A DNA stretch of 64,000 nucleotides from Nannocystis sp. GTDB lineage: Bacteria > Myxococcota_A > Polyangia > Nannocystales > Nannocystaceae. The notes under the pieces are model-generated. The model did no database searches. It saw nothing but the letters and a program-made list of their open reading frames with translations, and was not told where the DNA came from. A program made the translations under genes and the position numbers. Positions 5,344-58,256 of this stretch are shown here, piece after piece (position 1 is the first letter of the stretch; every line of letters starts with the position of its first letter). Location: the NCBI GenBank assembly GCA_016712315.1, contig JADJRG010000022.1, positions 866,522 to 930,521 of the forward strand, in the 5' to 3' direction.

Positions 5344-8300
5344 TCAACCCGGGCGCCCGCTCACCGCCGGGCGGACGTCTTCGACCGCTGGCGCGAACAT
5401 CCGAGAGATCCGCCGAGGGTTTTGGATCCCTTGCTCGCTCATAAAGAGCTCCGCGACGCTCACCATCTCAGCGCCCACCTCGCCGCCGATCAAGATCCCG
5501 CCGAGCCGCCGCGCCACCGCCGCGTGCAGCCGCATGTCAACCGCGCCGAAGCCCTCCTCCGCGCCGCGCAGCGCGACGATCGCCTCATCCGTCCGTCCCC
5601 GCATGCTCGCCAGGCTCGCCTCCACCAGATCCGCCAGCGCCCGCCCCCACGCCGCCTTCTCCCCGCGCAGCCGGCGGACATCCTCCTCGCACAGCCCCAG
5701 CAGCCCCTCCCGGTCCACGACCCCCTTACCGCCGCACAGCACCGCCAGCGCCGCGCACGCCCGCAGGTAGTGGAAGAGCAGCCGGTACCACTGCGCCTCG
5801 AACACATACGACGCCTTCAGCTGCTCCCACCGCCGCGACAGCCGCCGCCACGCCACCAAGCCCTCGGCCGCGTACAAGTCGATGTGCACGTTCGCGATGA
5901 ACGCCCACAGCCGCTGCACCGCGAAGCCCCCCTCGGACCAGCGCCCGCTCGCCGCGCCCAGCTCTGAGCGCGCCCGCAGGTGCTCATCGACCGCCAGCCA
6001 GCGGATGCACTGCGGCCCGGCGATCAGCGTCGTCTCCGCCCACATATCATCGCGCTCGCGCGCCTCGACCAGCCAGCCGCTCAGCCGCTCTGACATCTCC
6101 TTGATCCGGCCGCGGAAGAACAGCGTCATCAGCCGGTATGACTCGGTCAGCGTGATCTCGTACGAGACCCCCACGCACTCGTTGCGCAGGATCTCCTCCG
6201 CCCGCTCGAAGCGCTCCATCGCCGCCGGGAAGTCGCCGCTGTGGAACGCCGCGAAGCCCCAGCACACCGACAGCAGCCCGCGCGGGTAGGGCCCCTCCAC
6301 CTGCTGCGTCAGCGCCTGCGCGCCCGCCATCACCCGCTCCGTGCGCTCACGCGCCCGCTCCCCGCCCACCGACACATAGCCGACCTCCGCCGCCATCGCG
6401 CACGCCGCCTCGTACGCGTGACCTGTCTTGAGGGCCATATACAAGTGCTTGTTTTGGAACAGCGACGACACCAGCGGATCGATCGTCATCATCCCGCTCG
6501 CCGCGGTCCGCAGCACGCTCATCTTCAGCCGCGCCGCCGCGTCGATCGTCGCCGGGTCGCGCGCCTCGAACTTCAGCCCGCGCAGCTTCAGCCGCATCCG
6601 CTCGAAGATCAGGCTCGACCCCGCCGCCCGCCCGCTCTCGGGCAGCTGCAAGCCCACCGCCTCGATCACCCGCCGCAGCGCCGCCAGCCCGTCCGCCACG
6701 TGCCCGGAGCGCAGGTACTGCTCGGCCGCCCGCCGCCGCAGCTCCAGCGCCTCCGCCGCCGGCGCCATCTCGGCCGCCTCCAGGTAGATCTTCGCCGCAC
6801 GCGCGCCGCGCCCCCCGTTCGCCAGCGCGTCGCCGAGCTGGCACAGCAGCTCCGCCCGCCGCGGATCGCTGTGCGGCTTCAGCTCCAGCGCCAACCGGTA
6901 CAGCCGCGCCGCCCGGTCGAACGCCAGCGCCTCCGCCGCCTCCGCCGCCGCCACCTGCGCGTAGTCGCCGGCGCGCTCCCACTCCCCCGCCTCTCTGAAG
7001 TGCACCGCCAGCGTGTCCGAGTCGAAGTCGCCGGTCGCCTCGAGCGCGAACGCCAGGTCGCGATGGCGCTCGCGCAGCGACACCACGCTGAGGCGCGACC
7101 GCACCACCTCACGCACCCGGTCGTGATAGATCTCGACCAGCTGCGCCTCATCGACCGCGTACGTGTGCACCAGGTGCTCGCGGCGCAGCGTCGACAGCAG
7201 CGCCCGCACGTCGCCGCTCTGCCGGGCCGCCCGCAGCGCCAAGCGTTGATCGATAGGGCCGCCGAAGATCGCGATCACCTCGAGCAGCCGCCGCGACTCC
7301 GGCGTCAAGCGGGCCAGCCGCTCCTCCAGCACCTGCTCGAGCAGCACCGGCCCGCGCTGTCCGGGCGACTCCCCGCCGCCCGCCGCGTAGCGCACCAGCT
7401 CGTTGACGAAGAGCGGCGAGCCCCCCGACTCGCGCGCGATCTGGCGCGCCTGGTGCAGCTGCTGCGCCCGCGACTCCCCGCGCCCGCGCCCGCCCCCGCC
7501 CTCGCGCCCGATCCACAGCTCCGCCAGCGCCGCCGAGTCCTCCAGCGACAGCGGCCCCACCTCCAGCTCGCGCACGTCCACCTCGTCGCGCACGTGCTCG
7601 AGCAGCGCGCGGAACAGCGCCGAGGTCGCCAGCGACTCGCTGCGATAGCCCAAGATCAGCAGCAGCGCCGGCGCGTCTGGCGGCCGCAGCAGATCCGCCA
7701 GCGCCGCCGCCGAGTCGCGGTCACCCCACTGCAAGTCGTCGATGTGTAGGATCAACGATCGACGATCAGCGATCCGCGCCAGCAGCTCCTTCAGCGCCGC
7801 GAACGCGCGCCGCCGCAGCTCGCGCGGGTCGGGGATCTCCAGCGAGCGGCGCGGCGCCTCGACCACCGCCCGCACCCGCTGCAGCACCGGGAACACCCGC
7901 GCCAGCGCCGGGATGTCGCGCGGCATCAGCTCCGCCGCGCGCGCGTCAGGCAGCCGCATCAAGTAGTTGCAGAGCGCGTCGATCAAGCTGTCGAGCGCCT
8001 TATAAGACACCGACTCGCGCTCATAGCAGCGCCCTTGCAGCACCACCGCCCCGTCGCCCTCGCGCAGCATCGCCAAGAAGCGCCGCACCAGCGCCGTCTT
8101 GCCCATGCCTGAGCGCCCGTACACGTGGATCGCCACTGGCCGCCCGCGCTGGGTCGCGTCCAGCGCCTCCTTCAGCAGCCGCAGGTGATACTCCCGCCCG
8201 ACGAAGCTCGCCTCTTGCGCCGCCGCCTCGAGCACCGGCGCGACCGCCGGCTCACCCAGCCGCTTCAGCAGCTCCTTCGCCCCTGGACGCTTGCTCGGGT

Positions 8301-9156
8301 CCCGCGCCAGCAGATCCAGGCACAGCGCCTCCAGCTCCGCCGGCACCCCCGGCGTCACCTCTGAGGGTCGCCGCGGATCGACCTCTTGCTTGGCCAGCAG
8401 CATCGCCAGCCCCTTGCCGCGGAACGGCAGCTCGCCGGTCAGCGCCAAGTACACCATCGTGCCCACCGCGTACCAATCGCTCGCGACCGACGCGTCGCCG
8501 CCGCCAGCCTGCTCGGGCGACACATACGCCGGCGTGCCCACCATATCGCCCCCGGACGAGCGCATCGTCTCCACCAGCGACTCGCTCACCAGGCCGAAGT
8601 CCAGCAGCACCAGCCGCCCCTTGCTGGTCACCAGCACGTTCGACGGCTTGATGTCGCGGTGCAGCTTGCCGGTCGCGTGGATCGCCCCGAGCCCGCTCGC
8701 GAGCTGTCGCAGCGCCGATCGCAGCCGCTGATACAGCGCCGGCCGCGCCTCGGGGTCGTCCGGATCAGCCCCCCGCACGTACGCGACGAAGTCGACCCCG
8801 TCGACGAACTCCATCGTGAAGAAGATCTGCTCCCCCTCGGAGAACAGCTCGTACAGGTTGATCACGTTCGGGTGCGAGACGTCCGCCAGCGCCCGGAATT
8901 CCCGCTTAAAGCGGTACAGCGCCAGCGGGCTCACCCCGAGCAGCGTCTTAAGCGCCACCCACTCGTCGCGCTCGCGGTCCAGCGCCTCGTACACCACCCC
9001 CATCCCGCCCGCGCCGATCCGACGGCGCACGCTGAAGCGCTTGTTGCTCGCGAAGTCGATGAGCTGCAGGTTGTCGCCGACAGTCGGCGTCTTCGCGTCG
9101 ACCGCCGACTCCCCCGGGGGATGGCTCGGCGCCGCCGGTTCATCCCCGTCAGCCAT
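5344..9156 (-). CDS. Ser/Thr protein kinase fused to STAND/AAA ATPase and TPR-like helical repeats
   Basis: Kinase motifs HRDIKPSNVL, DFGL and GTPAYVSPE are at the N-terminus. The central region has the P-loop GRSGMGKTAL, and the C-terminus is helical-repeat-rich. The start was chosen at MADGDEP (ATG 9154-9156), not at the upstream Arg-rich extension of the ORF. Confidence 0.85.
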   Translation of the reverse strand: MADGDEPAAPSHPPGESAVDAKTPTVGDNLQLIDFASNKRFSVRRRIGAGGMGVVYEALDRERDEWVALKTLLGVSPLALYRFKREFRALADVSHPNVINLYELFSEGEQIFFTMEFVDGVDFVAYVRGADPDDPEARPALYQRLRSALRQLASGLGAIHATGKLHRDIKPSNVLVTSKGRLVLLDFGLVSESLVETMRSSGGDMVGTPAYVSPEQAGGGDASVASDWYAVGTMVYLALTGELPFRGKGLAMLLAKQEVDPRRPSEVTPGVPAELEALCLDLLARDPSKRPGAKELLKRLGEPAVAPVLEAAAQEASFVGREYHLRLLKEALDATQRGRPVAIHVYGRSGMGKTALVRRFLAMLREGDGAVVLQGRCYERESVSYKALDSLIDALCNYLMRLPDARAAELMPRDIPALARVFPVLQRVRAVVEAPRRSLEIPDPRELRRRAFAALKELLARIADRRSLILHIDDLQWGDRDSAAALADLLRPPDAPALLLILGYRSESLATSALFRALLEHVRDEVDVRELEVGPLSLEDSAALAELWIGREGGGGRGRGESRAQQLHQARQIARESGGSPLFVNELVRYAAGGGESPGQRGPVLLEQVLEERLARLTPESRRLLEVIAIFGGPIDQRLALRAARQSGDVRALLSTLRREHLVHTYAVDEAQLVEIYHDRVREVVRSRLSVVSLRERHRDLAFALEATGDFDSDTLAVHFREAGEWERAGDYAQVAAAEAAEALAFDRAARLYRLALELKPHSDPRRAELLCQLGDALANGGRGARAAKIYLEAAEMAPAAEALELRRRAAEQYLRSGHVADGLAALRRVIEAVGLQLPESGRAAGSSLIFERMRLKLRGLKFEARDPATIDAAARLKMSVLRTAASGMMTIDPLVSSLFQNKHLYMALKTGHAYEAACAMAAEVGYVSVGGERARERTERVMAGAQALTQQVEGPYPRGLLSVCWGFAAFHSGDFPAAMERFERAEEILRNECVGVSYEITLTESYRLMTLFFRGRIKEMSERLSGWLVEARERDDMWAETTLIAGPQCIRWLAVDEHLRARSELGAASGRWSEGGFAVQRLWAFIANVHIDLYAAEGLVAWRRLSRRWEQLKASYVFEAQWYRLLFHYLRACAALAVLCGGKGVVDREGLLGLCEEDVRRLRGEKAAWGRALADLVEASLASMRGRTDEAIVALRGAEEGFGAVDMRLHAAVARRLGGILIGGEVGAEMVSVAELFMSEQGIQNPRRISRMFAPAVEDVRPAVSGRPG

Positions 9157-9295
9157 CCAGGTCAGCGAGGCCGACCCGCTGTCGCTCCGCTCCCTCACCG
9201 CCGCTCGTTTATACGCCGCCGCCGCCCCGCTGTCTGATCGGCGGCCGCGCTCGCCCTGGCCGATCGCGCGGCCGCCGACATCCCCACGCCGACCA

Positions 9296-10396
9296 TCAAC
9301 CCTCCTCGACCATATTCGGGAAGTGCCGCAGGTACGCCAAGAAGCGCGGACCGACCGCCCGCTCCGCCAGCGCCGCCGCCGAGAGCGGCCCCCGCGTCGG
9401 CGTAAAGCCCTCTTTTTGCGCCTCACGCGGCCAGTCAGGGTTCAGGATCGCCGCCCGCCCCAGCGCCACCGCGTCCGCGCCGAGCGCCAGCGTCGCCGCC
9501 GCGTCCGCCACCGTCCAGATCTTGCCCGCCGCGATGATCGGCAGCGAGCGCGGCAGCGCCGCCCGCAGGCGCGGCAGCACGCTCTCCTCCGGGTACTTCA
9601 GGCTGCTCTTGTGCACGTCCCACAGCGACGCGTGGATAAAGTCCGCGCCCTCCTCCGCGAGCCACTGCGCCACCGTCACCGACTCATCCAGGTCGAGCCC
9701 GCGCGCGTAGCCGAAGTCCTCGAGCGAGAGCCGCACCCCGACCACGAAGCCCGCCGGCGTCGCCGCTCGCACCTGCCGCAGCGCCTCGCGGAGCAGCCGC
9801 GCGCGCCCGCGCAGATCGCCTCCCCACGCGTCCGCGCGCGTATTCATCGTCCTGCTCAAAAATTGGCTGAACAAATAGCCGTGCGCCCCGTGCAGCTCTA
9901 CCCCGCCGAACCCCGCCGCCACGCAGCGCCGCGCCGCCGCCACGAACGCCGCCAGCACCGCCTCGAGATCCCCCTCGGTCGCCGCCCGCGGCCGCTCGAA
10001 CCCCTCCCGCTCCTCCTCGAACTCGCTCGCGCTCCACGGCCGCTGCCCGGTCAACCGCGAGGGCGAGCGCACCCCGCCGTGATAGAGCTGCACCAGCCCC
10101 AGCGCGCCCGTCGCCGCGATCGCCGCCGCCAAGCGGCGCAGCCCTGGCAGGTGCGCGTCGCTCCACACCCCGAGCTGCCCCTCAAAGCCCTTGCCGGTCG
10201 CGCACACGTGCGCCGCGCAGGTCTCGACGATCCCGAAGCCGCCGGTCGCGCGCCGCACCAACCAGCGCAGCTCATCCTCGGAGAGCGTCCCGTCCTCCTC
10301 GCTCTGTTGGTTGGTCAGCGGCGCCAGCGCCACGCGGTTCGGCGCCGACGCGCCGCAGGGGAACAGGAGCGGTTCAAACAGCGAGGGTGCTGACAT
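9296..10396 (-). CDS. NADH:flavin oxidoreductase, Old Yellow Enzyme family
   Basis: OYE-like N-terminus MSAPSLFEPLLFP..NRVALAPLT. The translation is consistent with a TIM-barrel FMN oxidoreductase (HGAHGYLFSQFLS). The start ATG is at 10394-10396. Confidence 0.85.
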   Translation of the reverse strand: MSAPSLFEPLLFPCGASAPNRVALAPLTNQQSEEDGTLSEDELRWLVRRATGGFGIVETCAAHVCATGKGFEGQLGVWSDAHLPGLRRLAAAIAATGALGLVQLYHGGVRSPSRLTGQRPWSASEFEEEREGFERPRAATEGDLEAVLAAFVAAARRCVAAGFGGVELHGAHGYLFSQFLSRTMNTRADAWGGDLRGRARLLREALRQVRAATPAGFVVGVRLSLEDFGYARGLDLDESVTVAQWLAEEGADFIHASLWDVHKSSLKYPEESVLPRLRAALPRSLPIIAAGKIWTVADAAATLALGADAVALGRAAILNPDWPREAQKEGFTPTRGPLSAAALAERAVGPRFLAYLRHFPNMVEEG

Positions 10397-11860: not shown

Positions 11861-12427
11861 ATGCGCACCCGCACGCCCTTCGCCCTCACCCTCGCGCTCG
11901 CGCTCGTCGCCTGCTCTGGAGACGACGCCGCCAGCGCCACCGACGCCACCACCACGGCCAGCACCGCCACCACAGCCGGCACCGACGCCAGCGAGAGCGA
12001 CAGCGACACAGCCGCAGTCGACCCCGCCTGCGGCTCCGGTCTCGTCGTCAAGGGCGAAGGCGAGGACAAGATGGCCAAGTGGGGCGCCCCCTGCACCAAG
12101 GACGAAGAGTGCGTCGCCCTGATCGGCGAGGGCGCCCTCTGCTACGCCGCCATCGTCGACGTCTACAAGGCCCCTGGCGGCTACTGCTCCAAGCCCTGCG
12201 AGCTGATGGACGCCGATCCCCTCTACGTCCTCGATCACCCCGACTGCGGCCCGGGCATCACCTGCCTCGGCGTCAACGGCATCTTCACCGCCTGCCTCCC
12301 GGAGTGCACCAGCGACGCCCAGTGCCAGCGCGACGGCTACTCCTGCCACCTGCTCCCGCAGATCGGCATGGAGAACGACCCCACCTTCTGCCTGATGATG
12401 GACTCCTGCCTGGTCAACCCGCCCTGA
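11861..12427 (+). CDS. Cys-rich secreted lipoprotein
   Basis: Signal peptide with lipobox (LVACS). It has a Thr/Ala/Asp linker followed by a C-terminal domain with about 12 Cys. Confidence 0.65.
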   Translation: MRTRTPFALTLALALVACSGDDAASATDATTTASTATTAGTDASESDSDTAAVDPACGSGLVVKGEGEDKMAKWGAPCTKDEECVALIGEGALCYAAIVDVYKAPGGYCSKPCELMDADPLYVLDHPDCGPGITCLGVNGIFTACLPECTSDAQCQRDGYSCHLLPQIGMENDPTFCLMMDSCLVNPP

Positions 12428-12482
12428 TCCCGCCGATGTCGTCGTCGAGCCCCGCGAACGAGCAGCCGCTCGTGCTCCGCCC

Positions 12483-13439
12483 ATGACCATCCTGCTCGAC
12501 GGCGCCATGGGCACGGAGCTCGAGCGCCGGGGCGCCCGCACCGGCGCCCCCCTCTGGTCCGCCCACGCCTTGCTCGAGGCGCCCGAGCTCGTCCGCCAGA
12601 TCCACCTCGACTACCTACGCGCCGGCGCGCAGGTGATCACCACCAACACCTTCCGCACCCACGCGCGTAACCTCGCCCCTGCCGGCCTCGGCGAGCGGGC
12701 CGCCGCGCTCACCCACCTCGCCGTCCAGCTCGCCTGCCAGGCCCGCGATCTCGCGAGCGCCGACGATCCCACCGCCGGGCGCGCCGTCATCGCCGGCTCG
12801 ATCCCACCCCTCGAGGACAGCCTCGCCCCCGAGCGCTCGCCCGCGCGTCAGCGCGCCTTCCTCGAGCATCGAGCGCACGCGCGCCACCTCGCCCAAGCCG
12901 GCTGCGACCTCCTGCTCGTCGAGACCATCGGCCGCGTCGACGAGGCCCACGCCGCCTGCGACGCCGCCCTCGCCACCGGTCTGCCCGTCTGGCTCGCCGT
13001 CGTCGGCCGCGCCGACGGCAAGCTCCTCGGCGGCGAGACCTTCCACGATCTCATCACCGAGCTCGCCCCGCTGCCGATCGGCGCCCTCCTCCTCAACTGC
13101 ACCCAGCTCACCCATCTGCCCGCCCTGCTCCCGCCCCTCCTCCACGCCGCCGAGCGAGCCCCCCACCTCGCCCTCGGCCTCTACCCGCACACGGGCGCCC
13201 AAGACCCACAGCGCGGCTGGTGCACCCACGCCACCGACCCCCAGGGCCTCACCGCGGCGCTCGCCGCCGCCCAACGCGCCTCCCCGCGCCTCACCCTGCT
13301 AGGCGCCTGCTGCGGCTCCACCCCCGCCTGGATCGCCGAGCTCGCCCGCCGCTTCCACCCCACCGCCGACGATCGCCGCGCCGGCTTCGCCGAGCTCGAT
13401 CGCCTGCTCGCCCGCGGCGCCCCGCCGGACCTGGCCTAA
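12483..13439 (+). CDS. homocysteine S-methyltransferase family protein
   Basis: The N-terminus MTILLDGAMGTELERRG and the motif ITTNTF match the MmuM/BHMT homocysteine-methyltransferase domain. The C-terminal Cys cluster GACCGSTP is typical of the zinc site. Confidence 0.8.
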   Translation: MTILLDGAMGTELERRGARTGAPLWSAHALLEAPELVRQIHLDYLRAGAQVITTNTFRTHARNLAPAGLGERAAALTHLAVQLACQARDLASADDPTAGRAVIAGSIPPLEDSLAPERSPARQRAFLEHRAHARHLAQAGCDLLLVETIGRVDEAHAACDAALATGLPVWLAVVGRADGKLLGGETFHDLITELAPLPIGALLLNCTQLTHLPALLPPLLHAAERAPHLALGLYPHTGAQDPQRGWCTHATDPQGLTAALAAAQRASPRLTLLGACCGSTPAWIAELARRFHPTADDRRAGFAELDRLLARGAPPDLA

Positions 13440-15400: not shown

Positions 15401-16051
15401 TCACGGGCCGCGCAGCCGCGTCCCGAAGACCACGTCCCAGAGCGCGATCGAGATGCCAAAGTTCCCGCCGGAGCGCGCGTGATGGCGCAGGTGATGCCGC
15501 CGCAGCCGCGCCCCGAACCACGGCCGCGCGCTGTGGTGCGCCGCGTAGTGCGCCGCCTCGTACACCAGATACCCGAAGATCTGCCCGGCCAGCGCCGCCT
15601 GCCAGCCGCCACCGATCACCAGCCCATCGATCGCCGCCAGCAGCAGCGCCAGCGATCCGCCTTGGAAGGGCGTCGCCGCCAGTCGCTCGCGGTCCATCGG
15701 CGTCCGGTGGTGGTGCGTGTGCAGCACGAAGCGCGCGACCTTCCGTGCGTCTGTCTCACCAGACAGGTGAAAGATCGCCCGGTGCATCCAGTACTCCAGC
15801 AGCGTCCAGCTCAGCCACCCCCCGGCGAAGAGCGCCCCCAGCGCCCCCCAGCGCGGCCCTATCGCCATCGCCGCGGCCCACAGCGCCCACCCGATCACCG
15901 GCGCGAACAGCACGTACGGGCACGCCGGGTGCGCCCGCGTCAGCCCCTCCAGCAGCCGCGAGCGAAAGAAGCGCACCGGCGCCGCCGAGCGCAGCTCCGG
16001 CGCCGCCAGCCCCGCCGCCACGCACTCCTCCGTCAGCGGCCCCGCGCCCAC
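15401..16051 (-). CDS. fatty acid hydroxylase / sterol desaturase family membrane protein
   Basis: Hydrophobic segments plus histidine boxes (HRAIFH, HTHHH, HHLRHH) characteristic of this di-iron membrane family. Confidence 0.75.
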   Translation of the reverse strand: MGAGPLTEECVAAGLAAPELRSAAPVRFFRSRLLEGLTRAHPACPYVLFAPVIGWALWAAAMAIGPRWGALGALFAGGWLSWTLLEYWMHRAIFHLSGETDARKVARFVLHTHHHRTPMDRERLAATPFQGGSLALLLAAIDGLVIGGGWQAALAGQIFGYLVYEAAHYAAHHSARPWFGARLRRHHLRHHARSGGNFGISIALWDVVFGTRLRGP

Positions 16052-16057
16052 GATCGT

Positions 16058-16843
16058 TCACCCCTCGGCCGTCACCGAGCGCAGCCGCAGCCCGCCGAGC
16101 GACGCCTTCAAGCGCCCGCGCATCTTCTTCAGCTCGCGCGCGTGGAACACCCGCTCGTCCAGCGGCCGCTCGATCCCCTCCGTCTTGTTCATCACGCTCG
16201 CGGGCAGCGACGAGTGCGGCAGCCCGAAGTAGTGCCCCAGCTCATGCGTCAGCACCAGCCGCCCTGCGATCTTCGAGAGGATGATCCAGCGCCGCGAACG
16301 ATCCTCCCGGTCGCGCCAGTGCACCCCGCGGATCTCCCCTGGCTCATCCACGTTCGCCAGCGAGCCCGCCACGAAGACCTGGATCAGCGCCTCATCGTAG
16401 CGCCCTGCCCCGAGCCGATCGCGATCCCGACGGCTCACCACCGCCCCCTCCTCCGGCCGCAACGCCGACGCCGCGCGCACCTCGAAGCTCACCTCGATCG
16501 GCGCGAAGCGGAGCTGCGCCTCGGTCACCTGCCCTGCCAGCCACGCCGCATCGACCACCATACCCGCCGCGTCCGCCGCCACGAACACGTGGATCCCCAC
16601 GCAGCGGCGCGCTGGCGAGCAGCGCGGCGTCGCCTCGACCAGCGCCGCCAGCTCCGCCTCGCCAGGCGATCGCAGCGCCGCCGCGGGCGCGTCGACGCCC
16701 GCCGCCGAGCCCGCGCAAAAACGCGCCTTGGCCGGCGCCGCGACGACCCCCAACGAACCGACCAACAACGCCGCGCCTCCCCACCTGAGGGCGCGTATCG
16801 CTCGCCGGGGCCGCACCGCACGCATCGGCGTTGAGCCTATCAC
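16058..16843 (-). CDS. secreted zinc metalloprotease (HExxH, metzincin-like)
   Basis: The zinc-binding motif VLTHELGHYFGLPHS is present and the N-terminus has a signal peptide. It lies 7 nt downstream of the hydroxylase gene on the same strand. Confidence 0.75.
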   Translation of the reverse strand: MIGSTPMRAVRPRRAIRALRWGGAALLVGSLGVVAAPAKARFCAGSAAGVDAPAAALRSPGEAELAALVEATPRCSPARRCVGIHVFVAADAAGMVVDAAWLAGQVTEAQLRFAPIEVSFEVRAASALRPEEGAVVSRRDRDRLGAGRYDEALIQVFVAGSLANVDEPGEIRGVHWRDREDRSRRWIILSKIAGRLVLTHELGHYFGLPHSSLPASVMNKTEGIERPLDERVFHARELKKMRGRLKASLGGLRLRSVTAEG

Positions 16844-18912
16844 AGCGGCGCTTCGGCGAGCCCTCGCGCTTGCGACGCCCCGCGCTACGCCGCTACCCTC
16901 CTCTCGTGGCGAGCACCTTGCCTGGCATCGGCGCCATCCCCCTCGGCGAGGCCCGCACCCTGCCTGGCATCAGCGACACAGGGCCCTCCGAGCGGAGCGC
17001 CGCCACCCCGCCCGCGTCCCCCACCCTCACCTCGCTCGCCGATCTCTGCGCGCGTCTGGGCGTCGCCGTCCAGATCGCCCCTGGGCTCGCCGCGGACGCC
17101 CCCTCGCTGCGAGGCGGCGACGATCCTCGCTACCAGCTCGGCGTCGAGCTCGGCCGAGGCGGAGGCGGCCGCGTCCACCTCGCCACGGATCGAGACCTCC
17201 GCCGCAGCGTCGCCCTCAAGGTCCTGCAAGAGGCCCACCTCAGCGATCCCTTGCGCGTCCAGGCCTTCCTCGAGGAGGCCGTGATCACCGCCGGCCTCGA
17301 GCACCCCAACATCGTCCCGATCTACGACATTGGTTGGAGCCCCAACTTCGGCGTGTATTACACGATGCAGCGGCTCAGCGGCGGCACCCTCGCCGACCTC
17401 CTAGAGCGCGCCAAGCGCCGCCCCGAGGCCGCCCGCACCTTCGGCCTCTACCGCGCCCTGGGCGCCTTCACCGAGCTCTGTCGCGGCGTCGCCCACGCCC
17501 ACCGCCGCGGCGTCATCCACTCGGATCTCAAGCCCGAGAACGTCTTCGTCGGCGACTACGGCGAGGTCGTGATCGTCGACTGGGGCATGGCTCAATTGCT
17601 CGGCCCTGACGGAGCCAGCCAAGTACGCGCCCAGATCCGCGGCGGCACCCCCGAGTACATGGCCCCAGAGCAGTGCGTCGAGACCGGCAGCCACCTCGGC
17701 GTCGGCGTCGACGTCTGGGCCCTCGGCGTCATCCTCTACGAGCTGCTCACCGGCGACGTCCCGTTTCAGGGCGCCGACCCGCAGGAGACCGCCATGCGCG
17801 TGCTCATCGAGCCCCTCGTCCCCCCCGCCGATCGCGCCCCTGACCGCGGCATCCCCCCTGGAATCGATCAGATCTGCGTACGGGCGCTCGAGCGCGACCG
17901 AGCCCGCCGCTACCCCAGCGTCGACGAGCTGCTCGGCGACGTCCAAGCCTACCTCGCCGGCACCCGCGAGCGCGCCCGCCGGGCCGAGCAGATCGTGCAC
18001 GCGATCGAGAGCGCCAGCCTCCTGCTCGGCGCCATCGCCCCCCCCGAGCGAGAGATCGACGCCGAGCTCCGCCGCCCCGAGGCCCAGCTCGACCTCGAGC
18101 GCCTCGAAGCCCTCCGCGCCCAGCTCCTCGACACCTACGTGCCCGCCGCCCGCGCCCTGCTGCGCGGCCTCGAGCTCGATCCCGCCGCCCCGCTCCTCCA
18201 TCGCCACGCCAGCGATCTCTATTGGCGGCTCTTCACCCGCGTCTATCCCTCGCGCGTGCGCCCCGCCCCGGGGCTCGCCGCCCGCGCCATGGATCTGCTC
18301 ACCGGCCTCAGCCAGCGCGCCTCGGCCGCGATCGTCCGCGCCGGCGCCGAGCGCTCTGGCGGCGACGCCGACACCTCGACCTGGCTCACCGTCGTCCAAC
18401 AGATCGCCGAGCAGGACGCCCGCGGCGGCACCGCCATGAAGCAGGTCGTCACCCGCGTCGCCAGCCTCGGTGAGATCCCGCTCTTCCGCGAGATGCAGCC
18501 CGCCAACCTCCTACCGATCGCCGAGGCCTGCACCGAGCATCGCCACGCCCCTGGCGCCACCATCTTCGCCCAAGGCGCCCCCGGCGACGCCCTCTTCGTC
18601 CTGCTCAGCGGCCACGTCGACATCCTCCGCGACGGCGCCGTCATCAACACCCTGCACCCAGGCGAGTGTTTTGGTGAGATCGCCGTGCTCGGCGAGACCG
18701 CCCGCACCGCCTCCGCGATCGCCGTCGATCACGTCCACGTGCTCACCCTCGACGCCCCGCGCTTCCGCCAGATCGTCCGCGAGCGCGGCGAGATCGGCGT
18801 CGCCGTGATCCAGGCCTTAAGCGAGCGGATCCGCGTCGCCACCCGCCGCGAGGCCGCCCTGCGCTCCCTCGCCGGCGCGATCCTCAGCCAGCACGGCGAC
18901 CGCGGCCCCTGA
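16831..18912 (+). CDS. Ser/Thr protein kinase with C-terminal cyclic-nucleotide-binding (CAP-family) domain
   Basis: Kinase motifs HSDLKPENVF, VDWGMAQ and GTPEYMAPE. The C-terminal cNMP-binding signature is GECFGEIAVLGETARTASAIAV. The exact start is uncertain; it may lie downstream of 16831. Confidence 0.85.
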   Translation: MSLSQRRFGEPSRLRRPALRRYPPLVASTLPGIGAIPLGEARTLPGISDTGPSERSAATPPASPTLTSLADLCARLGVAVQIAPGLAADAPSLRGGDDPRYQLGVELGRGGGGRVHLATDRDLRRSVALKVLQEAHLSDPLRVQAFLEEAVITAGLEHPNIVPIYDIGWSPNFGVYYTMQRLSGGTLADLLERAKRRPEAARTFGLYRALGAFTELCRGVAHAHRRGVIHSDLKPENVFVGDYGEVVIVDWGMAQLLGPDGASQVRAQIRGGTPEYMAPEQCVETGSHLGVGVDVWALGVILYELLTGDVPFQGADPQETAMRVLIEPLVPPADRAPDRGIPPGIDQICVRALERDRARRYPSVDELLGDVQAYLAGTRERARRAEQIVHAIESASLLLGAIAPPEREIDAELRRPEAQLDLERLEALRAQLLDTYVPAARALLRGLELDPAAPLLHRHASDLYWRLFTRVYPSRVRPAPGLAARAMDLLTGLSQRASAAIVRAGAERSGGDADTSTWLTVVQQIAEQDARGGTAMKQVVTRVASLGEIPLFREMQPANLLPIAEACTEHRHAPGATIFAQGAPGDALFVLLSGHVDILRDGAVINTLHPGECFGEIAVLGETARTASAIAVDHVHVLTLDAPRFRQIVRERGEIGVAVIQALSERIRVATRREAALRSLAGAILSQHGDRGP

Positions 18913-18917
18913 GCCGC

Positions 18918-19973
18918 TCAGCCCGCGCGCGGCGCCCCCGGCCACACCCGCTCGAGGAAGTGCGTCTGCACGACCCCCAGGCCCTTCAGCGTCAGCGACC
19001 CGCGCGAGCGCAGGTGGAAGCGCCCGCGATCCAGCAGCGCCGCGCTGCGGTCGCTCACGTGCGCCAGCATCGGCACGCTCGCCCGCTCCAGCCGGCTCGC
19101 CGCGTTCATCGCGTCGCCGAGCAGGCAGAAGCGGGGGGTTCGCGACCCGACCACCCCGCCGATCACCGGCCCCGAGTCGATCCCGATCCGGATCTCCAGC
19201 GGCACCCCGTCGCCTGCGTCGAAGCCGTGGACCGCCTCGATCATGTCCAGCGCCATCGCCGCGACCGCGTCTGCGTCGCCGGGCCGCGCCTCTGGCACCC
19301 CGCCGACCACCACATAGCAGTCGCCGATCGTCTCCACCTTGTAGAGCCCGTGCCGCTCCGAGAGCGCGTCGAAGCTCGTATACAGGCGATCGAGCAGCTC
19401 GAAGATCTGCCGCGCCCCGCGGGCCCGCGCCAGCGCCGTGAAGCCGACGATATCGGCGAAGAGCACCGTCACCGCTGGGAACAGCTCCCCGCCGAAGCTC
19501 CGCCCCTCGCGCAGCGCGCCGGCCACCGCCGCCGGCAGCATGCGATAGAGCAGCGCGTCGGACTTCTCGCGCTCGCGCTTCAGCTCGTCTTGCAGCGCGC
19601 GGATCGTCAAGTGCGTGCGCACCCGCGCCAGCACCTCCTCGATGTGAAACGGCTTGGTCACGTAGTCGACCCCGCCGACCTCGAACGCCCGCACCTTATC
19701 GATCACCTCGTTCAGCGCGCTGAGGAAGATCACCGGCACGTCGCGGGTCGCCGGGTCCGCCTTCAGCCGCCGGCACACCTCATACCCGTCCGGCTCCGGC
19801 ATGTGGATGTCGAGCAGGATCAGCGCCGGAGGGGCCGCCGCCGCCGCGCGGAGCGCCTGCGCCCCGCTGATCACCGGCCGCGCGCGGTAGCCCGCCGCGA
19901 CCAGCACCTCGCTGAGCAGGCGCAGGTTCGCTGGGGTGTCATCGACGATCAGGATCTCATTCGCCTCGCTCAT
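18918..19973 (-). CDS. response regulator (REC) fused to class III adenylate/guanylate cyclase
   Basis: The REC domain is ILIVDD...D...VIFLSA...K. The cyclase CHD motifs are VTVLFADIVGFT and KVETIGDCYVVVGG. Confidence 0.9.
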   Translation of the reverse strand: MSEANEILIVDDTPANLRLLSEVLVAAGYRARPVISGAQALRAAAAAPPALILLDIHMPEPDGYEVCRRLKADPATRDVPVIFLSALNEVIDKVRAFEVGGVDYVTKPFHIEEVLARVRTHLTIRALQDELKREREKSDALLYRMLPAAVAGALREGRSFGGELFPAVTVLFADIVGFTALARARGARQIFELLDRLYTSFDALSERHGLYKVETIGDCYVVVGGVPEARPGDADAVAAMALDMIEAVHGFDAGDGVPLEIRIGIDSGPVIGGVVGSRTPRFCLLGDAMNAASRLERASVPMLAHVSDRSAALLDRGRFHLRSRGSLTLKGLGVVQTHFLERVWPGAPRAG

Positions 19974-22201
19974 CCGCCTCCGCTCCTGGCCTGCGCGGCC
20001 GCGCCTCGATCGCCCTCGTCGTCCTCGAGCAGCCGCAGCACCCCATCATAGTCGAAGCACTGGGCCGCCGACTCGATCGCGCGGGCCACCTCCGGCGCCG
20101 CCGCCGCGATCTCCGCCGCGAGCGCCGTCATTCCGGCCGGATCGGCCGCCAGCGCCGCCCCGCGCGCCGCCTCACGCCAGCGCGCCGGCAGGCGCCGGGC
20201 CCCCTCCTTCGCCGCCGCCTCGATCTCCACCTGTCCTTGTGAATAGGTGAACTTCAGCGGCAAGTGTCGTGACATCGCCCCCAGGATCTCGCGCTCGCGG
20301 AACGGCTTCGCGACGAAGTCGACGCAGCCCGCCTCGCGCATCCGCGCCCGGTCGTCCTCGAAGACGTTCGCCGAGAGGGCCACGATCACCGCCGCGGCGC
20401 CGGTCGGCGACGCCTTGATGATCCTCGTCGCCTCGATCCCGTCCATCACCGGCATCCGGATGTCCATCCAGATGAGGTCGGGGCGCCAGCTCGCCGCGAT
20501 CTCCACCGCCTCGGCCCCGTCGATCGCCTCACGCACGTCGAAGCCGAGCGGACGCAGCAGGCGCACCAGCACCTCCCGGTTGCGCGCGCCGTCCTCGACC
20601 ACCAAGATCCGCCAGCGCGGCTGCCCTGGCGCCAGCCCCACCGGCATCGGCGGCGGCGCCTCCTCCTCCCCTCGGCTGCCCCCGGCGATCGCCCCGACGT
20701 TCACCTCGAAGCTGAAGACCGAGCCGCGGCCGAGCGCCGAGCGCACCGTGATCTCTCCGCCCATCAGGCGCACAAACTGTTGGCTGATCGACAGCCCCAG
20801 CCCGGTCCCCTCCGGCGCGTGCCGCCCGCTCCCAGTCTGCTCGAACGGCTTGAACAGGCGGTGCTGCTCCTCAGCCGCGATCCCGCGGCCGCTGTCCTCG
20901 ACCTCGAAGCGCAGCACGTGGACCCGCTCGCCCGCGCGGACGCTCCCGCGCAGCGTGACCCCCCCCGCGTCGGTGAATTTGATCGCGTTGCTGAGCAGGT
21001 TGAGGATCACCTGCCGCAGCTTCGCCGAGTCCCCCATCACCGCCCGCGGCAGGTCGGGCGCGAGCGTCACCGCCAGGTGCAGCCCCTTCTCGCGCGCCCG
21101 CAGCCGGAGCATGTCCTCGAGGTCATACAAGAGCCGATGCAGATCGAAGCTGCGCTCATTCAGCGTCATCCTGCCGGCCTCGATCTTCGACATCTCGAGG
21201 ACGTCATTGATCAGGCTGAGCAAGTGCTCGCCGCTGCGGTTGATCACCTCCAGGTGCTCGTTCTGCTCGTGGCTGAGCCCTGGGCCGCGGATCAGGAGCT
21301 GAGCGAAGCCCAGGATCGCGTTCAGCGGCGTCCGCAGCTCGTGGCTCATGTTCGCCAGGAAGACGCTCTTCGCCCGGTTCGCCGCCTCGGCCGCCTCGAC
21401 CGCGCGCAGCCGGGCGAGCTCCGCCCGCTTCAGGTCGGTGATGTCGCGTGAGATCGTCGCATATCCGACCAGCTCGCCCGTCTCCGAGCGGATCACCGTG
21501 ATCACCTGCGACACCGGGATCTCGGTCCCGTCGGTGTGCCAGAGGAACATCTCACCCAACCACGAGCCGTGCTGCCGCACGTACGGGAAGATCTCCGTGA
21601 TCAAGCGCTCGTAGTCGCGCGGCGCCTGGAGGTCCGCCACCTGGAGGCTCATCGGCTCCTCGCCCCCTCGCCCGACCAGCGCCATCCCGGCGGGGTTCAC
21701 ATACAAGATCCGCCCCTCGCGATCGGCCAGCGCCACGAAGTCGCTGGTGTTCTCGAGCACCGCCGCCAACGAGCGCAGTCGGGCGAGCAGCCGCGCCTGC
21801 TCGCTCGCCGCGCCCACCTCCCGCTGAACGGGGCGCGCCACCACGACCCGCACGTCCCCCTCGATCCGCAGCGCCACCTCGACCGCGAGCAGCGCCCCCT
21901 CCGCGCTCCGCAGCGCGCCCACCCCGCGCCACGGCTCACCGCGGCGCAGCGCCGCCAGCGCCTCGCCCGCGAGCATCGCCTCGGCGCCGCGGCCGATCAT
22001 CGCGTCGCCGCGATCGCGGCCCAGCAGCGCCAGCCCCGCGGGGTTCACCGCGAGGATCACCCCTGCCCGATCGCAGCGCGCGATCAAGTCTGAAGCCGCG
22101 GCGATCGCCCCCTCCGCGGCCGCGAGCGCCGCCTCGAGCCGCGCGAGCTCGAGCGCCGCCGCCTCGTTCCACTCAAGCGATCGCCGGTCGAGGTGCACCA
22201 C
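19970..22201 (-). CDS. hybrid sensor histidine kinase (PAS x2, HisKA, HATPase, two receiver domains)
   Basis: H-box SHELRTPLNAILGF, followed by an ATPase G-box region and then two REC domains. Its stop overlaps the start of the cyclase gene by 4 nt, so the two are an operon. Confidence 0.9.
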   Translation of the reverse strand: MVHLDRRSLEWNEAAALELARLEAALAAAEGAIAAASDLIARCDRAGVILAVNPAGLALLGRDRGDAMIGRGAEAMLAGEALAALRRGEPWRGVGALRSAEGALLAVEVALRIEGDVRVVVARPVQREVGAASEQARLLARLRSLAAVLENTSDFVALADREGRILYVNPAGMALVGRGGEEPMSLQVADLQAPRDYERLITEIFPYVRQHGSWLGEMFLWHTDGTEIPVSQVITVIRSETGELVGYATISRDITDLKRAELARLRAVEAAEAANRAKSVFLANMSHELRTPLNAILGFAQLLIRGPGLSHEQNEHLEVINRSGEHLLSLINDVLEMSKIEAGRMTLNERSFDLHRLLYDLEDMLRLRAREKGLHLAVTLAPDLPRAVMGDSAKLRQVILNLLSNAIKFTDAGGVTLRGSVRAGERVHVLRFEVEDSGRGIAAEEQHRLFKPFEQTGSGRHAPEGTGLGLSISQQFVRLMGGEITVRSALGRGSVFSFEVNVGAIAGGSRGEEEAPPPMPVGLAPGQPRWRILVVEDGARNREVLVRLLRPLGFDVREAIDGAEAVEIAASWRPDLIWMDIRMPVMDGIEATRIIKASPTGAAAVIVALSANVFEDDRARMREAGCVDFVAKPFREREILGAMSRHLPLKFTYSQGQVEIEAAAKEGARRLPARWREAARGAALAADPAGMTALAAEIAAAAPEVARAIESAAQCFDYDGVLRLLEDDEGDRGAAAQARSGGG

Positions 22202-23449: not shown

Positions 23450-25768
<2,319 letters not shown>

Positions 25769-37165: not shown

Positions 37166-38521
37166 CTAGCCGACGTAGCGCTCGAGCTTGCGGTAGAGCG
37201 TCTTGCGGTCGAAGCCCAGCACCTTCGCCGCCAGCGTCTTGTTGCCGCCCACCGCCTCCATCACCCGCGCGATGTAGCGCTGCTCCACCTCATCCATCGT
37301 CAGCAGCTCGGAGGGGTCATCGCTCGCCAGCACCACGTGCGAGCGGCTGTACGCGCGCACCTTCTCCGGCAGATCCTCGACCGCGATCTGCTCGAAGCGC
37401 GTCAGCGCGACCGCGCGCTCGATGCAGTTGCGCAGCTCTCGCACGTTCCCCGGCCACGGATACGCCAGCAGCCGCTCCGCCGCCGAGGCCTGGATCCCGA
37501 CCACGCTCTTGCCGTTCTGCGCCGCGAAGCGCTCGAGGAACGCCTGCGCGAGCAGCAGCACGTCCCCGCCGCGCGAGCGCAGCGGCGGCAGCGCGACGTG
37601 GATGACGTTGATCCGAAAGAACAGGTCCTCGCGAAAGCGCCCCTCCGCGACCGCGGTCTCGAGATCCACGTTGGTCGCGCAGATCGTCCGAATATCGATC
37701 GGGACCTCCTTGTTGCTGCCCACCGGCCGGATCACCCGCTCTTCCAGCGCCCGCAGCAGCTTCGGCTGCACCGACACCGGCAGGTCGCCGATCTCGTCCA
37801 AGAACAGCGTCCCCCCCTCGGCCTGCGTCAGCAGCCCAGGCCGCTCGGAGCGAGCGTCGGTGAACGCCCCCTTCGCGTGGCCGAAGAGCTCGCTCTCGAA
37901 GAGCCCCTCCGGGATCGCCGAACAATTCACGCCGACGAAGGGGCCGGTGCGCCGGCGCCCGCGCTCGTGCAAGGTCCGCGCGACCACCTCTTTGCCGGTC
38001 CCGGTCTCGCCCGTGATCAACATCGACGCGTCGGTCTCGGCGACGCGGTCGATCAGGTCGAAGACCTCCTGCATCGCCGGGCTCGTCCCGATCACCCCGG
38101 TGAGCGGCCGGCGAGCCGCGATCTCTTGCTTGAGCAGCTTCACCTCCTCCCGCAGCCGCCGCTCCCGCACGACCCGCTGCATACGCACCGCGGTCGCCTC
38201 GAGGTGGAGCGGTTTTTGGATGAAGTCGTACGCGTCGGCGCGGATCGCCGCGATCGCCGTCTCGAGGGTCGCGAAGGCCGTCATCACGACCACCGGCGTC
38301 TCTGGGTGATGGGTCGCGACCTGCTGGCAGAAAGCGATCCCGTCCATGCCTGGCATCTGCAAGTCCGTGAGCACCGCGTCGAAGCCGCCGCTCGCGAGCG
38401 ATCCCAGCGCCTCGCTCGCCGAGGTGCTGGTCACTGACTCGAGCCCGTGCATCCTGAAGCCTGCGGCGAGGAGCGCGCAGAAATCAGGGTCGTCGTCGAC
38501 GATGAGTACACGGCCGATCAT
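37166..38521 (-). CDS. sigma54-dependent Fis-family response regulator (NtrC-like)
   Basis: The REC domain is RVLIVDDD. The AAA+ sigma54-interaction domain has GETGTGKE and ESELFGH. There is a C-terminal Fis-type HTH. The start is ATG 38519-38521. Confidence 0.9.
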
Positions 38522-41598: not shown

Positions 41599-42345
41599 AT
41601 GCTCGCCCCAGCCAGCGCGACCGAGGAGGCCTACGAGCTCCACCGAGGCGGCGACGACGCCTCCCTCCTGCTCGTCTGCGAGCACGCCTCGCTGCGCCTG
41701 CCGAGCCCGTGGAGCTGGCCAGAGGAGGATCGGTGGCTGCTCGGCACCCATTGGTCCTTTGATCTGGGGGCGGCCGATCTCAGCCGCGGGCTCGCGCGCG
41801 AGATCGGCTGCGCCGCCGTGCTCAGCCGCTTCACCCGCCTGCTCATCGATCCCAACCGCGATCTCGCCGCCCCCACCCTCTTCCGAGTCGAGGCCGAGGG
41901 CCACCCGATCCACCTCAACGCCGCGATCTCCCCCGCCGATCGTGAACGTCGGATCACCGACTACTACACGCCCTACCACGATCAGATCGATCATCGCCTC
42001 CGCGCCGCGCCCGCCGCCGCGCTGCTCTCCGTCCACACCTTCACGCCCGTCTACGACGGTCACGTCCGCGCCGTCGAGATCGGCGTACTCTTCGACGAGC
42101 ACGCCGATCTCGCCCAAGTCTTCGCCCGCGAGCTCCGCCGATGCGGCTGGCGTAGCGCCCTCAACGAGCCCTATTCGGGCCAAGCCGGCTTCGCCTTCTC
42201 GCCCCAGCACCACGCCGCCAATCATCAGCGCCCGTGGCTCGAGATCGAGATCCGCCAGGACATCGCGGTCGATCTTGACCGTCGTCCGGCCCTGATCGCC
42301 GCCCTCACCGCCGCGATCAGGCGCACCTTCGCGAGCGCCGCGTAG
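41599..42345 (+). CDS. N-formylglutamate amidohydrolase (FGase) family protein
   Basis: LLLVCEHAS and the overall length of 248 aa match the FGase/HutG-like zinc amidohydrolase family. Confidence 0.7.
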   Translation: MLAPASATEEAYELHRGGDDASLLLVCEHASLRLPSPWSWPEEDRWLLGTHWSFDLGAADLSRGLAREIGCAAVLSRFTRLLIDPNRDLAAPTLFRVEAEGHPIHLNAAISPADRERRITDYYTPYHDQIDHRLRAAPAAALLSVHTFTPVYDGHVRAVEIGVLFDEHADLAQVFARELRRCGWRSALNEPYSGQAGFAFSPQHHAANHQRPWLEIEIRQDIAVDLDRRPALIAALTAAIRRTFASAA

Positions 42346-42899: not shown

Positions 42900-43517
42900 T
42901 CAGTAGGGCCGCTCGTGGAACCACAGGTTAAACGCCCACTTCTCGCCGCGCGCGGGGGCGCAGCCTTGGTGATACGTCCGCGGATCGCAGCGCGTCGTCC
43001 CGGGAAAGCAGTTATAAAAAACTAGGAGCCTGCCTCGGCGCGGCCGCACCGCCACACCGAGGCGCGGGAACGCGGTCTCCCCCCCTTGCTCGACCTCACT
43101 CAGGTACGCCAACGCGGTCACCAGCCGTTGCCCGCCGCGCGCGCAGTACAGCCGCCCCTTCTCCGTCGACAGATCATAGGCGTCGAAGTGTGGCCTGTAC
43201 TCTTGGCCAGCCGCGTAGTGGATCACCTGCAGCGGCTCTGCGTGGCCGAGCGGCAGCCCGATCGCCCCCGCGATCCGTGAACAAGCCGCCAGCACCCCCG
43301 CGTCGTGCGAGTGCTTCACCCACGAACGCGAGCTCGTGCGCCCCCCGCTCACCACCCCACGCGCCGCCCCGCTCACCTGCGATCGCCCGAGCGTGGGCGC
43401 CGCCGCCGCGATCACGCGCGCACACTCATCCGCCGACAAAAAATCGTCCCAGCGATGGATCAGCGGCTCCTCGTTCAGTCGGACGCCTCCGTCGAAGTCG
43501 CGGCGCAGCTCCATCAT
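42900..43517 (-). CDS. 2OG-Fe(II) oxygenase, prolyl-4-hydroxylase-like
   Basis: HFDAYD matches the His-x-Asp iron-binding motif, and the downstream His and RLLVFYN resemble the P4Hc/2OG-FeII_Oxy fold. Confidence 0.75.
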   Translation of the reverse strand: MMELRRDFDGGVRLNEEPLIHRWDDFLSADECARVIAAAAPTLGRSQVSGAARGVVSGGRTSSRSWVKHSHDAGVLAACSRIAGAIGLPLGHAEPLQVIHYAAGQEYRPHFDAYDLSTEKGRLYCARGGQRLVTALAYLSEVEQGGETAFPRLGVAVRPRRGRLLVFYNCFPGTTRCDPRTYHQGCAPARGEKWAFNLWFHERPY

Positions 43518-43641
43518 CGATCACGCCCACCAACGCGTGGAGATCGAGCATAGGTCCCTCGCACCGCCCCTCGCAAGGCCCACACGTCACGAGCGACGAG
43601 ACTTCGCCCCATCGCAGCCTCACCCCGCTATCTTCCTCGCC

Positions 43642-47572: not shown

Positions 47573-47650
47573 ACCCGCCCTCTCTCCCAACCAGACGCTC
47601 TCATCCTTGATCAGGTCCCAATAGAGTGCAAGCAAAAAATTAGCGGTACA

Positions 47651-51583: not shown

Positions 51584-51731
51584 TCCGGCCCGCGCGACGC
51601 ACCTGCGTGGAGTTCAGCACCCTCAGAGCCCTGGCGACAGACGACAACACTGCGATCTTGCCCAGCTTTGCACAGCCCTTCACAGCGCGGCAAGCGACCC
51701 CGACCGCGGCCGCCAGCGTACACTCTCGCCC

Positions 51732-58254: not shown

Positions 58255-58256
58255 GG

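Follow-up and report, generated by a model that had tools for sequence, protein, structure and literature searches.

A 64-kb stretch of Nannocystis DNA (the window, meaning the whole stretch that was analysed) carries at 16831-22201 three long open reading frames (ORFs) that, by the ORF calls, fill this interval: a Hanks-type Ser/Thr kinase ending in a cyclic-nucleotide-binding (CNB) domain and, convergent to it, a hybrid histidine kinase (HK) followed by a class III nucleotide cyclase fused to a receiver (REC) domain. Our preferred reading, to which we assign a probability of roughly 0.55, is that the HK and the cyclase form an operon producing cyclic GMP (cGMP), and that a Hanks kinase regulated by cyclic nucleoside monophosphates (cNMPs) was placed beside it recently, the kinase being a possible reader of the cNMP pool. 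This reading draws on domain content, catalytic and specificity residues, operon conservation and synteny, from which we infer a phosphotransfer route, a product, a ligand and a direction of regulation. An earlier reading of the bare letters (the sequence-only reading) had named the three genes and their domains, and Pfam confirms every one of them. Relatives of all three proteins are found in Nannocystaceae and Myxococcales assemblies. The genes and their junctions lie as follows.

16831..18912, plus strand: kinase ORF, 693 amino acids (aa) from TTG 16831
16906..18912, plus strand: Ser/Thr kinase with C-terminal cNMP-binding domain, 668 aa (Pfam and homologue alignment)
18913..18917, no strand: 5-nucleotide (nt) spacer between the convergent kinase and cyclase stop codons (18912 and 18918), from the sequence
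18918..19973, minus strand: REC-cyclase ORF, 351 aa
19970..19973, minus strand: 4-nt overlap of the HK stop codon and the cyclase start codon, from ORF coordinates
19970..22201, minus strand: hybrid HK ORF, 743 aa

The most likely start of the kinase is GTG 16906, giving 668 aa, and not TTG 16831, since its homologues span 663-690 aa and the 99%-identical homologue P0001 has 668 aa; with this start the overlap with the upstream gene disappears. The 4-nt overlap between HK and cyclase is a case of translational coupling. Because only 5 nt separate the kinase and cyclase stops and no terminator was predicted in this spacer, the two transcripts must overlap, though the promoter and terminator scan is uninformative in DNA of about 71% G+C such as this. 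Rfam gave no match anywhere in the window, and NCBIfam none above its curated cut-offs for the kinase, the cyclase or the HK.

A receiver-fused cyclase predicted to make cGMP

19617..19955, minus strand: receiver domain of the cyclase, aa 7-119 (Pfam)
19512..19601, minus strand: coiled-coil signalling helix from REC to cyclase, aa 125-154 (weak HNOBA match)
18951..19481, minus strand: class III cyclase catalytic domain, aa 165-341 (PDB alignment and residue tables)

The cyclase protein matches MBK8264519.1, annotated 'response regulator [Nannocystis sp.]', at 100% identity and is recognised in Pfam by Response_reg (E 3e-25) and Guanylate_cyc (E 5e-50). Its receiver is intact, with Asp11, Asp12, Asp55, Ser85 and Lys107 in columns conserved in 42-43 of the 43 clade members. 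In animal guanylate cyclases a helix stands before the catalytic domain; the segment at aa ~125-154 aligns with it, and PDB alignments to GC-A, GC-C and sGC beta1 begin at aa 117-132. The catalytic residues whose absence would, by the sequence-only reading, have refuted it are all in place: the metal-binding Asp174 and Asp218 are kept in 43 of 43 clade sequences, and the transition-state Asn290 and Arg294, aligned to the GC-A motif NTASRME, are both kept in 38 of 43.

The specificity pair, left by the same reading as the means of choosing between cAMP and cGMP, is Glu214/Cys283, as in eukaryotic guanylate cyclases. The closest solved structure is human GC-A (E 8e-48), followed among PDB matches by the mycobacterial adenylate cyclase Ma1120, GC-C, mammalian adenylate cyclases and sGC. 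In the PDB alignment KVETIGDCY of the cyclase stands opposite KVETIGDAY of GC-A, PRFCLLGDAMNAASRLE opposite PRYCLFGDTVNTASRME, and PRFCLLGD opposite PRYCLFGD, whereas the two specificity columns are occupied by Lys and Asp in Ma1120 (4p2f). Mammalian guanylate cyclases typically carry Glu/Cys, and E-to-K plus C-to-D swaps turn a guanylate into an adenylate cyclase (PMC4215837). In the hit list (43 sequences aligned), all 40 Nannocystaceae REC-cyclases carry Glu/Cys, which is thus held across ~50% sequence divergence in the clade. Based on the presence of this pair and its conservation throughout the clade, the most likely product is predicted to be cGMP.

The nearest relatives outside the myxobacteria are cyanobacterial REC-cyclases (e.g. 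Microcoleus, 43-48% identity), which are alike in length and in their REC-helix-cyclase architecture but are of the adenylate-cyclase type, with Lys or Arg together with Asp. Judged by these residues, the Nannocystaceae clade appears to have switched to Glu/Cys relative to its cyanobacterial cousins. A eukaryotic origin of the cyclase was considered and rejected, as its scores against GC-A (167 bits) and against bacterial Ma1120, a class IIIa adenylate cyclase (155 bits), are similar; the protein is better described as probably a new, receiver-fused Glu/Cys member of class IIIa, with animal guanylate cyclases and mycobacterial adenylate cyclases as its nearest characterised relatives, and probably a homodimer.

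It might be argued that, despite its Glu/Cys pair, the enzyme is an adenylate cyclase, a promiscuous cyclase or a pseudo-enzyme with a regulatory role. Substrate selection by guanylate cyclases is indeed less well defined than that by adenylate cyclases, and mutations of the specificity residues often lower activity rather than switch it (PMC4215837). We regard this as improbable, as all six canonical residues are present, Glu/Cys is kept by the whole clade over the divergence given above, and the closest solved relatives include GC-A, GC-C and sGC.

A hybrid histidine kinase in a recurrent operon

The HK has two PAS domains, HisKA, HATPase_c and Response_reg in Pfam, an H-box HELRTP at aa 287, intact N and G boxes, and a receiver of its own with phospho-acceptor Asp580. 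It is a cytoplasmic, soluble hybrid kinase. The 4-nt overlap proposed in the sequence-only reading is real, and in all eight related loci examined (L081, L083, L084-L086, L087, L088-L089, L090) the hybrid HK lies directly upstream of the REC-cyclase with an identical overlap. As the pair and its overlap recur in every one of these loci, the arrangement is a genuine operon, and the reading of HK and REC-cyclase as a putative cognate two-component pair is supported. In L087 and L090 the HK has orthologues (60-63% identity), and in the orthologous copies of the operon (L087, L090, L081) an ornithine/arginine decarboxylase gene precedes.

The paralogous copies, which likewise encode an HK and a Glu/Cys REC-cyclase, adjoin a different set of genes: in L084-L086 (6869-11083) and L088/L089 (6700-11095) the operon directly follows sterol-type genes, of the EBP sterol isomerase family and 3-beta-HSD. 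In the window itself, a FA_hydroxylase of the sterol desaturase superfamily is encoded at 15401-16051.

In Myxococcus, the hybrid HK SgmT has been shown to pass phosphate directly to DigR, a separate regulator (PMC3509222). Given this precedent, we consider it more likely that phosphate would pass directly from the HK to the cyclase receiver, with a remote HPt protein as the alternative.

A PknB-like kinase with a cyclic-nucleotide-binding domain

17131..17910, plus strand: Hanks-type kinase domain, PknB-like (Pfam, invariant columns, Foldseek)
17920..18471, plus strand: all-helical linker domain, aa 339-522 of 668, with conserved DLYWRxFxRxYPS and DPWL motifs
18541..18783, plus strand: CNB domain, then a long C-terminal helix (PF00027)
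18670-18714, plus strand: phosphate-binding cassette FGEIAVLGETARTAS of the CNB domain (homologue alignment)

Pfam recognises Pkinase (E 3e-42) and cNMP_binding (E 2e-20) in this protein, so that the convergent Hanks kinase with a C-terminal CAP-family CNB domain described by the sequence-only reading is borne out, with the 5 nt noted above between its stop codon and that of the cyclase. Its kinase motifs are a Gly loop GRGGGGRV, Lys105, Glu124, H-S-D, Asn212, DWG in place of DFG, and TPEYMAPE. In an end-to-end alignment of 27 full-length homologues the Gly loop, Lys105, Glu124, the catalytic Asp of HxD, DWG and APE are invariant. Across the family the catalytic Asp is preceded by Ser, Cys, Thr, Gly or Ala, which makes it a non-RD family; taken together with the invariant DWG, this region (17518-17581, aa 205-227) suggests regulation independent of activation-loop phosphorylation.

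An AlphaFold model of the whole kinase (pLDDT 85.6, pTM 0.66) was searched with Foldseek, the kinase domain dominating the matches. The top matches were to M. tuberculosis PknB at 30-34% identity, with a TM-score (target) of 0.78-0.91 among the PknB matches; the top 29 were all bacterial kinases (PknB, PknA, Stk1), and PKA and PKG are absent from the 50 matches listed. The helical linker matched no Pfam family, and when modelled together with the CNB domain it forms one compact unit (pLDDT 91.2, pTM 0.84). Among 1.84 billion representatives this linker-plus-CNB module is present at full length in ~15 clusters at 50% identity, all of them kinase-sized proteins. At the other end of the protein, aa 1-75 (16906-17130) contain a family-wide motif, LxxxCxxLGV...PGLDxDAPxL, of which aa 43-50 are modelled as a short helix.

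In the CNB domain, which has the beta-roll fold of PF00027, the Gly-Glu...Arg-Thr-Ala residues of the cassette, which contact phosphate and ribose, are invariant in the 27 members of the kinase-CNB family, and Thr follows the cassette Arg, as in PKG. The best solved matches include CNB domains of PKG and PKA-R; their standing needs to be read per domain, as the higher PKG totals are sums over two domains, and the per-domain score is 54 bits for bacterial CRP versus 49 bits for PKG. On this ground a eukaryotic origin of the CNB domain was rejected. Nucleotide binding would probably change kinase activity allosterically, and cGMP from the adjacent cyclase is a plausible candidate ligand.

The domain might conceivably bind no cyclic nucleotide at all, being a CNB-homology domain or a receptor for another ligand, with the kinase regulated otherwise. 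The cassette residues invariant here, Gly-Glu and Arg-Thr-Ala, are those lost in non-binding CNB-homology domains, which makes this reading distinctly improbable.

That a kinase gated by cNMP is uncommon in bacteria, as the sequence-only reading held, seems reasonable in view of the cluster count above and of the literature, where searches on Nannocystis or Plesiocystis with cGMP and on fusions of a kinase with CNB turned up no characterised case. Among Planctomycetota kinases, CNB is one of the accessory domains listed (PMC11032199).

Linkage of kinase and cyclase among relatives

On the preferred reading, the soluble PAS-domain HK would autophosphorylate on a cytoplasmic cue and pass its phosphate to Asp55 of the receiver fused to the class IIIa cyclase; from the phosphorylated receiver the signal would then travel along the coiled-coil helix to the homodimeric catalytic domain, in which Glu214/Cys283 most likely direct the conversion of GTP to cGMP. 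The sole recognisable sensor of the PknB-type, non-RD Hanks kinase is its C-terminal CNB domain, joined by the family-specific helical bundle, and a nucleotide bound there would shift kinase activity allosterically, with cGMP made by the neighbour as a plausible ligand. As predicted from sequence, the first two steps of this relay, HK and cyclase, are well supported, and the third step, from cGMP to the kinase, is plausible. How closely the kinase belongs to the other two genes depends on their linkage among relatives.

The kinase adjoins the cyclase in three close lineages. The first comprises the window and L083, which is the same species (kinase 99% identity). In L090 (70% identity) the order is NUDIX, kinase, then convergent cyclase, HK and ornithine decarboxylase. 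The third, L081 (69% identity), has the same order with one addition between kinase and cyclase, a 285-aa gene (12113-12970, plus strand) that has a weak DUF4215 match and is found in L081 only. In five further loci (L082, L091, L001, L002, L004) the kinase lies in another context, with a sigma54 response regulator, FGase, a NudC-like NUDIX gene (NUDIX-like plus Zn_ribbon_NUD), the kinase, a 714-aa gene and TopA, and no cyclase within 10 kb of the kinase. FGase and NUDIX are on the same strand as the kinase with short gaps, and the sigma54 response regulator is divergently upstream (L091 8109-12034, and also in the other four). In L003, L005 and L092 the kinase occurs in further, unrelated contexts. 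Loci L001-L005 come from a contig scan with the kinase alignment that used kinase-domain patterns; 75 of its 80 loci were generic kinases and only these five were informative. In the metagenome-assembled genome (MAG) GCA_041389845.1 the kinase (contig 13) and an ornithine decarboxylase-HK-cyclase operon (contig 47) lie on separate contigs, and accession numbering suggests that the MAG behind L001 likewise has them on different contigs. With linkage confined to one subclade and absent from the more distant loci, the juxtaposition is best taken as recent and derived, and the kinase may have had its older functional setting in the FGase/NUDIX neighbourhood. In the window a sigma54 regulator (37175-38521) and FGase (41650-42288) are encoded ~20 kb away.

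The joining of the two units only recently is the reason why we see in the kinase not a dedicated third step but one potential reader of the cell's cNMP pool. It also divides the claims of the sequence-only reading: the relay stands for its HK and cyclase steps, and synteny among relatives stands for the HK-cyclase pair, while the kinase as third step is linked in only three close lineages and is unlinked in eight loci. The description of the module as self-contained does not hold, since no phosphodiesterase or HPt gene lies nearby; specifically, no cNMP phosphodiesterase is recognisable among the 29 window ORFs scanned with Pfam.

A number of observations weigh against a functional tie between the three genes, or against parts of the proposed route. 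Adjacency of kinase and cyclase is missing in 8 of the 11 independent kinase loci (L082, L091, L001-L005, L092), and in the three linked loci the kinase is on the strand opposite to the cyclase operon, convergent with it and not co-transcribed. The other cyclase operons examined have no CNB gene within 10 kb. Unrelated Hanks kinases also flank the cyclase operons in L084 and L087, as is to be expected where Hanks kinases are as dense as three per 64 kb, or about 1 per 20 kb. The junction between the convergent genes measures 5-67 nt and so offers a small target for breakpoints, weakening any argument from selection. For the phosphotransfer step, Pfam finds no HPt match in the ~100-aa C-terminal tail of the HK, even at E<=10, and its scans of the 29 window ORFs find no HPt protein among the neighbours. 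For the ligand, the kinase CNB has a conserved Asn where, in the alignment, Plasmodium PKG has its strand-5 Arg; in PKG, CNB-B included, this Arg reads guanine. The cassette Arg-Thr suits cGMP yet occurs in cAMP binders too.

On the other side, kinase, cyclase and HK are kept together in the window, L090 and L081 though both flanks differ, and a juxtaposition that survives rearrangement on both sides is mild evidence for selection. A stronger claim can be built on it, namely that the three genes are one selected unit, a dedicated three-step relay with cGMP as messenger and a bacterial analogue of guanylate cyclase and PKG. The trio persists in three lineages (69-75% identity) while the upstream sigma54 regulator/FGase/NUDIX and downstream ornithine-decarboxylase contexts have been lost or rearranged. 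Further, the only CNB ORF and the only cyclase ORF in the 64-kb window are these two neighbours (profile searches of every window ORF of >= 80 aa gave no second CNB gene and no second cyclase, against three Hanks kinases); the CNB domain has Arg-Thr like PKG; reports of the kinase family, like those of the Glu/Cys cyclase clade, come mainly from Nannocystaceae/Myxococcales MAGs, with at least two genomes having both; and the Xanthomonas pair XC_0250/XC_0249 offers a precedent. We nevertheless consider a dedicated relay unlikely. The ancestral state is unlinked, with five loci of the FGase-NUDIX-kinase, 714-aa gene, TopA type having no cyclase within reach and three loci (L003, L005, L092) having unrelated contexts; the short junction makes persistence weak evidence of selection; L081 already has a gene between kinase and cyclase; and the Pfam-scanned window ORFs include no phosphodiesterase.

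It is also quite possible, if short of probable, that the genes are neighbours by coincidence, the kinase reading cAMP or the cGMP of other cyclases and working with its ancestral partners FGase, the NudC-like NUDIX protein and the sigma54 response regulator; a mere rearrangement would then have put it next to the cyclase operon. This would account for the same-strand, closely spaced FGase, NUDIX and kinase genes in L091, L082, L001, L002 and L004, and for NUDIX preceding the kinase in L090; kinases of other families near the cyclase operons in L084 and L087, and the convergent orientation of kinase and cyclase, point the same way. Coincidence leaves unexplained, however, the junction kept in three lineages with changed flanks, and, the kinase aside, the Pfam-scanned ORFs of the loci and the window include no recognisable cGMP receptor.

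Comparison with known cyclic-nucleotide systems

Animal guanylate cyclases of class IIIa (GC-A/NPR1, GC-C, sGC beta1) align with the signalling helix and catalytic unit of the Nannocystis cyclase over ~210 residues and share its metal, transition-state and Glu/Cys residues. They differ in their input, which is a kinase-homology or H-NOX/PAS region in the animal enzymes and a bacterial receiver in the soluble, 351-aa Nannocystis protein. Characterised bacterial class III makers of cGMP are Synechocystis Cya2, the Rhodospirillum centenum guanylate cyclase that controls cyst formation, and Xanthomonas XC_0250 (PMC3770947, PMC4215837). Cya2 has a Glu/Gly pair (PMC4215837), XC_0250 is fused to TPR repeats, unlike the receiver-fused Nannocystis enzyme, and the papers cited here describe none of the three as a receiver fusion driven by an operon-encoded hybrid HK. 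The effectors of these three are a CNB-GGDEF protein or a CRP-type regulator, whereas the candidate here is a protein kinase. In Xanthomonas the guanylate cyclase gene XC_0250 is linked to the gene of its cGMP effector, XC_0249 (PMC3770947); the Nannocystis cyclase and kinase recall this arrangement, though here three linked loci stand against eight unlinked ones.

Like eukaryotic PKG and PKA, the Nannocystis kinase couples a Ser/Thr kinase to a CNB domain with an Arg-Thr-Ala cassette. It may act in a PKG-like way, but membership of the PKG/AGC family was rejected on kinase class, domain order and CNB number: PKG has an AGC kinase domain, tandem N-terminal CNB domains and an autoinhibitory segment, while the Nannocystis protein is PknB-like with one C-terminal CNB domain and, in place of that segment, a helical-bundle linker. 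It is an analogue of PKG that arose via domain shuffling, not a PKG homologue. Other bacterial enzymes fused to CNB are XC_0249 (CNB-GGDEF), mycobacterial Rv0998 (CNB-acetyltransferase), Bd1971 of Bdellovibrio (CNB-EAL) and myxobacterial PP2C-CNB phosphatases; unlike in all of these, the CNB output in the Nannocystis protein is a Hanks kinase. The CNB-PP2C phosphatase fusions are reportedly restricted to Myxococcales (PMC2887360).

Characterised cGMP systems are few in bacteria (Synechocystis Cya2, R. centenum, Xanthomonas). A clade of Glu/Cys receiver-cyclases, each with its own hybrid HK, would join them as a clearly delimited class of cGMP generators that lends itself to testing, and would show a natural switch from Lys/Asp to Glu/Cys relative to the cyanobacterial cousins. 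The literature searched contains no cyclic-nucleotide-controlled bacterial protein kinase, and the ~670-aa kinase-CNB family is a concrete candidate. With the window providing a natural kinase and cyclase pair for joint testing, the practical value lies in experiments and not in a new principle. More tentatively, and on balance doubtfully, one may picture a Nannocystaceae pathway from cGMP to protein phosphorylation, independent of eukaryotic guanylate cyclase and PKG, in which cGMP from the two-component-controlled Glu/Cys cyclase would directly switch the PknB-type kinase through the CNB domain and the helical transducer; if true, the kinase would be the first protein kinase in bacteria to depend on a cyclic nucleotide, and PKG would have a convergent counterpart.

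Neighbouring genes and other features of the window

Directly upstream, the sequence-only reading had placed a metzincin protease and a lipid hydroxylase. The FA_hydroxylase match is solid at 64 bits and the metzincin marginal, with Peptidase_M10 at 27 bits against a cut-off of 24 (both Pfam). Neither is a conserved neighbour, and both were rejected as parts of the unit, being absent from L081 and L090.

The two further large Hanks kinases of the window are encoded on the minus strand at 46445-51613 and 5344-9441; one has Pkinase, nSTAND1 and FGE-sulfatase domains and adjoins an ADYC-domain protein, and the other has Pkinase and AAA_16. At 23450-25768 (plus strand) lies a gene for a DUF4388-plus-TPR protein with a central acidic tract of several hundred residues, containing poly-Asp runs and DDIGELGDL-like repeats. 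An IucA/IucC-FhuF siderophore synthetase-like gene (43219-45390, plus strand) and a TonB-dependent receptor (55786-58542, minus strand) are unrelated to the cyclase and kinase. Finally, every 2-kb bin of the window (1-64000) shows a strongly negative GC skew (-0.11 to -0.25) in spite of genes on both strands; a skew of this size is unusual for a bacterial chromosome.

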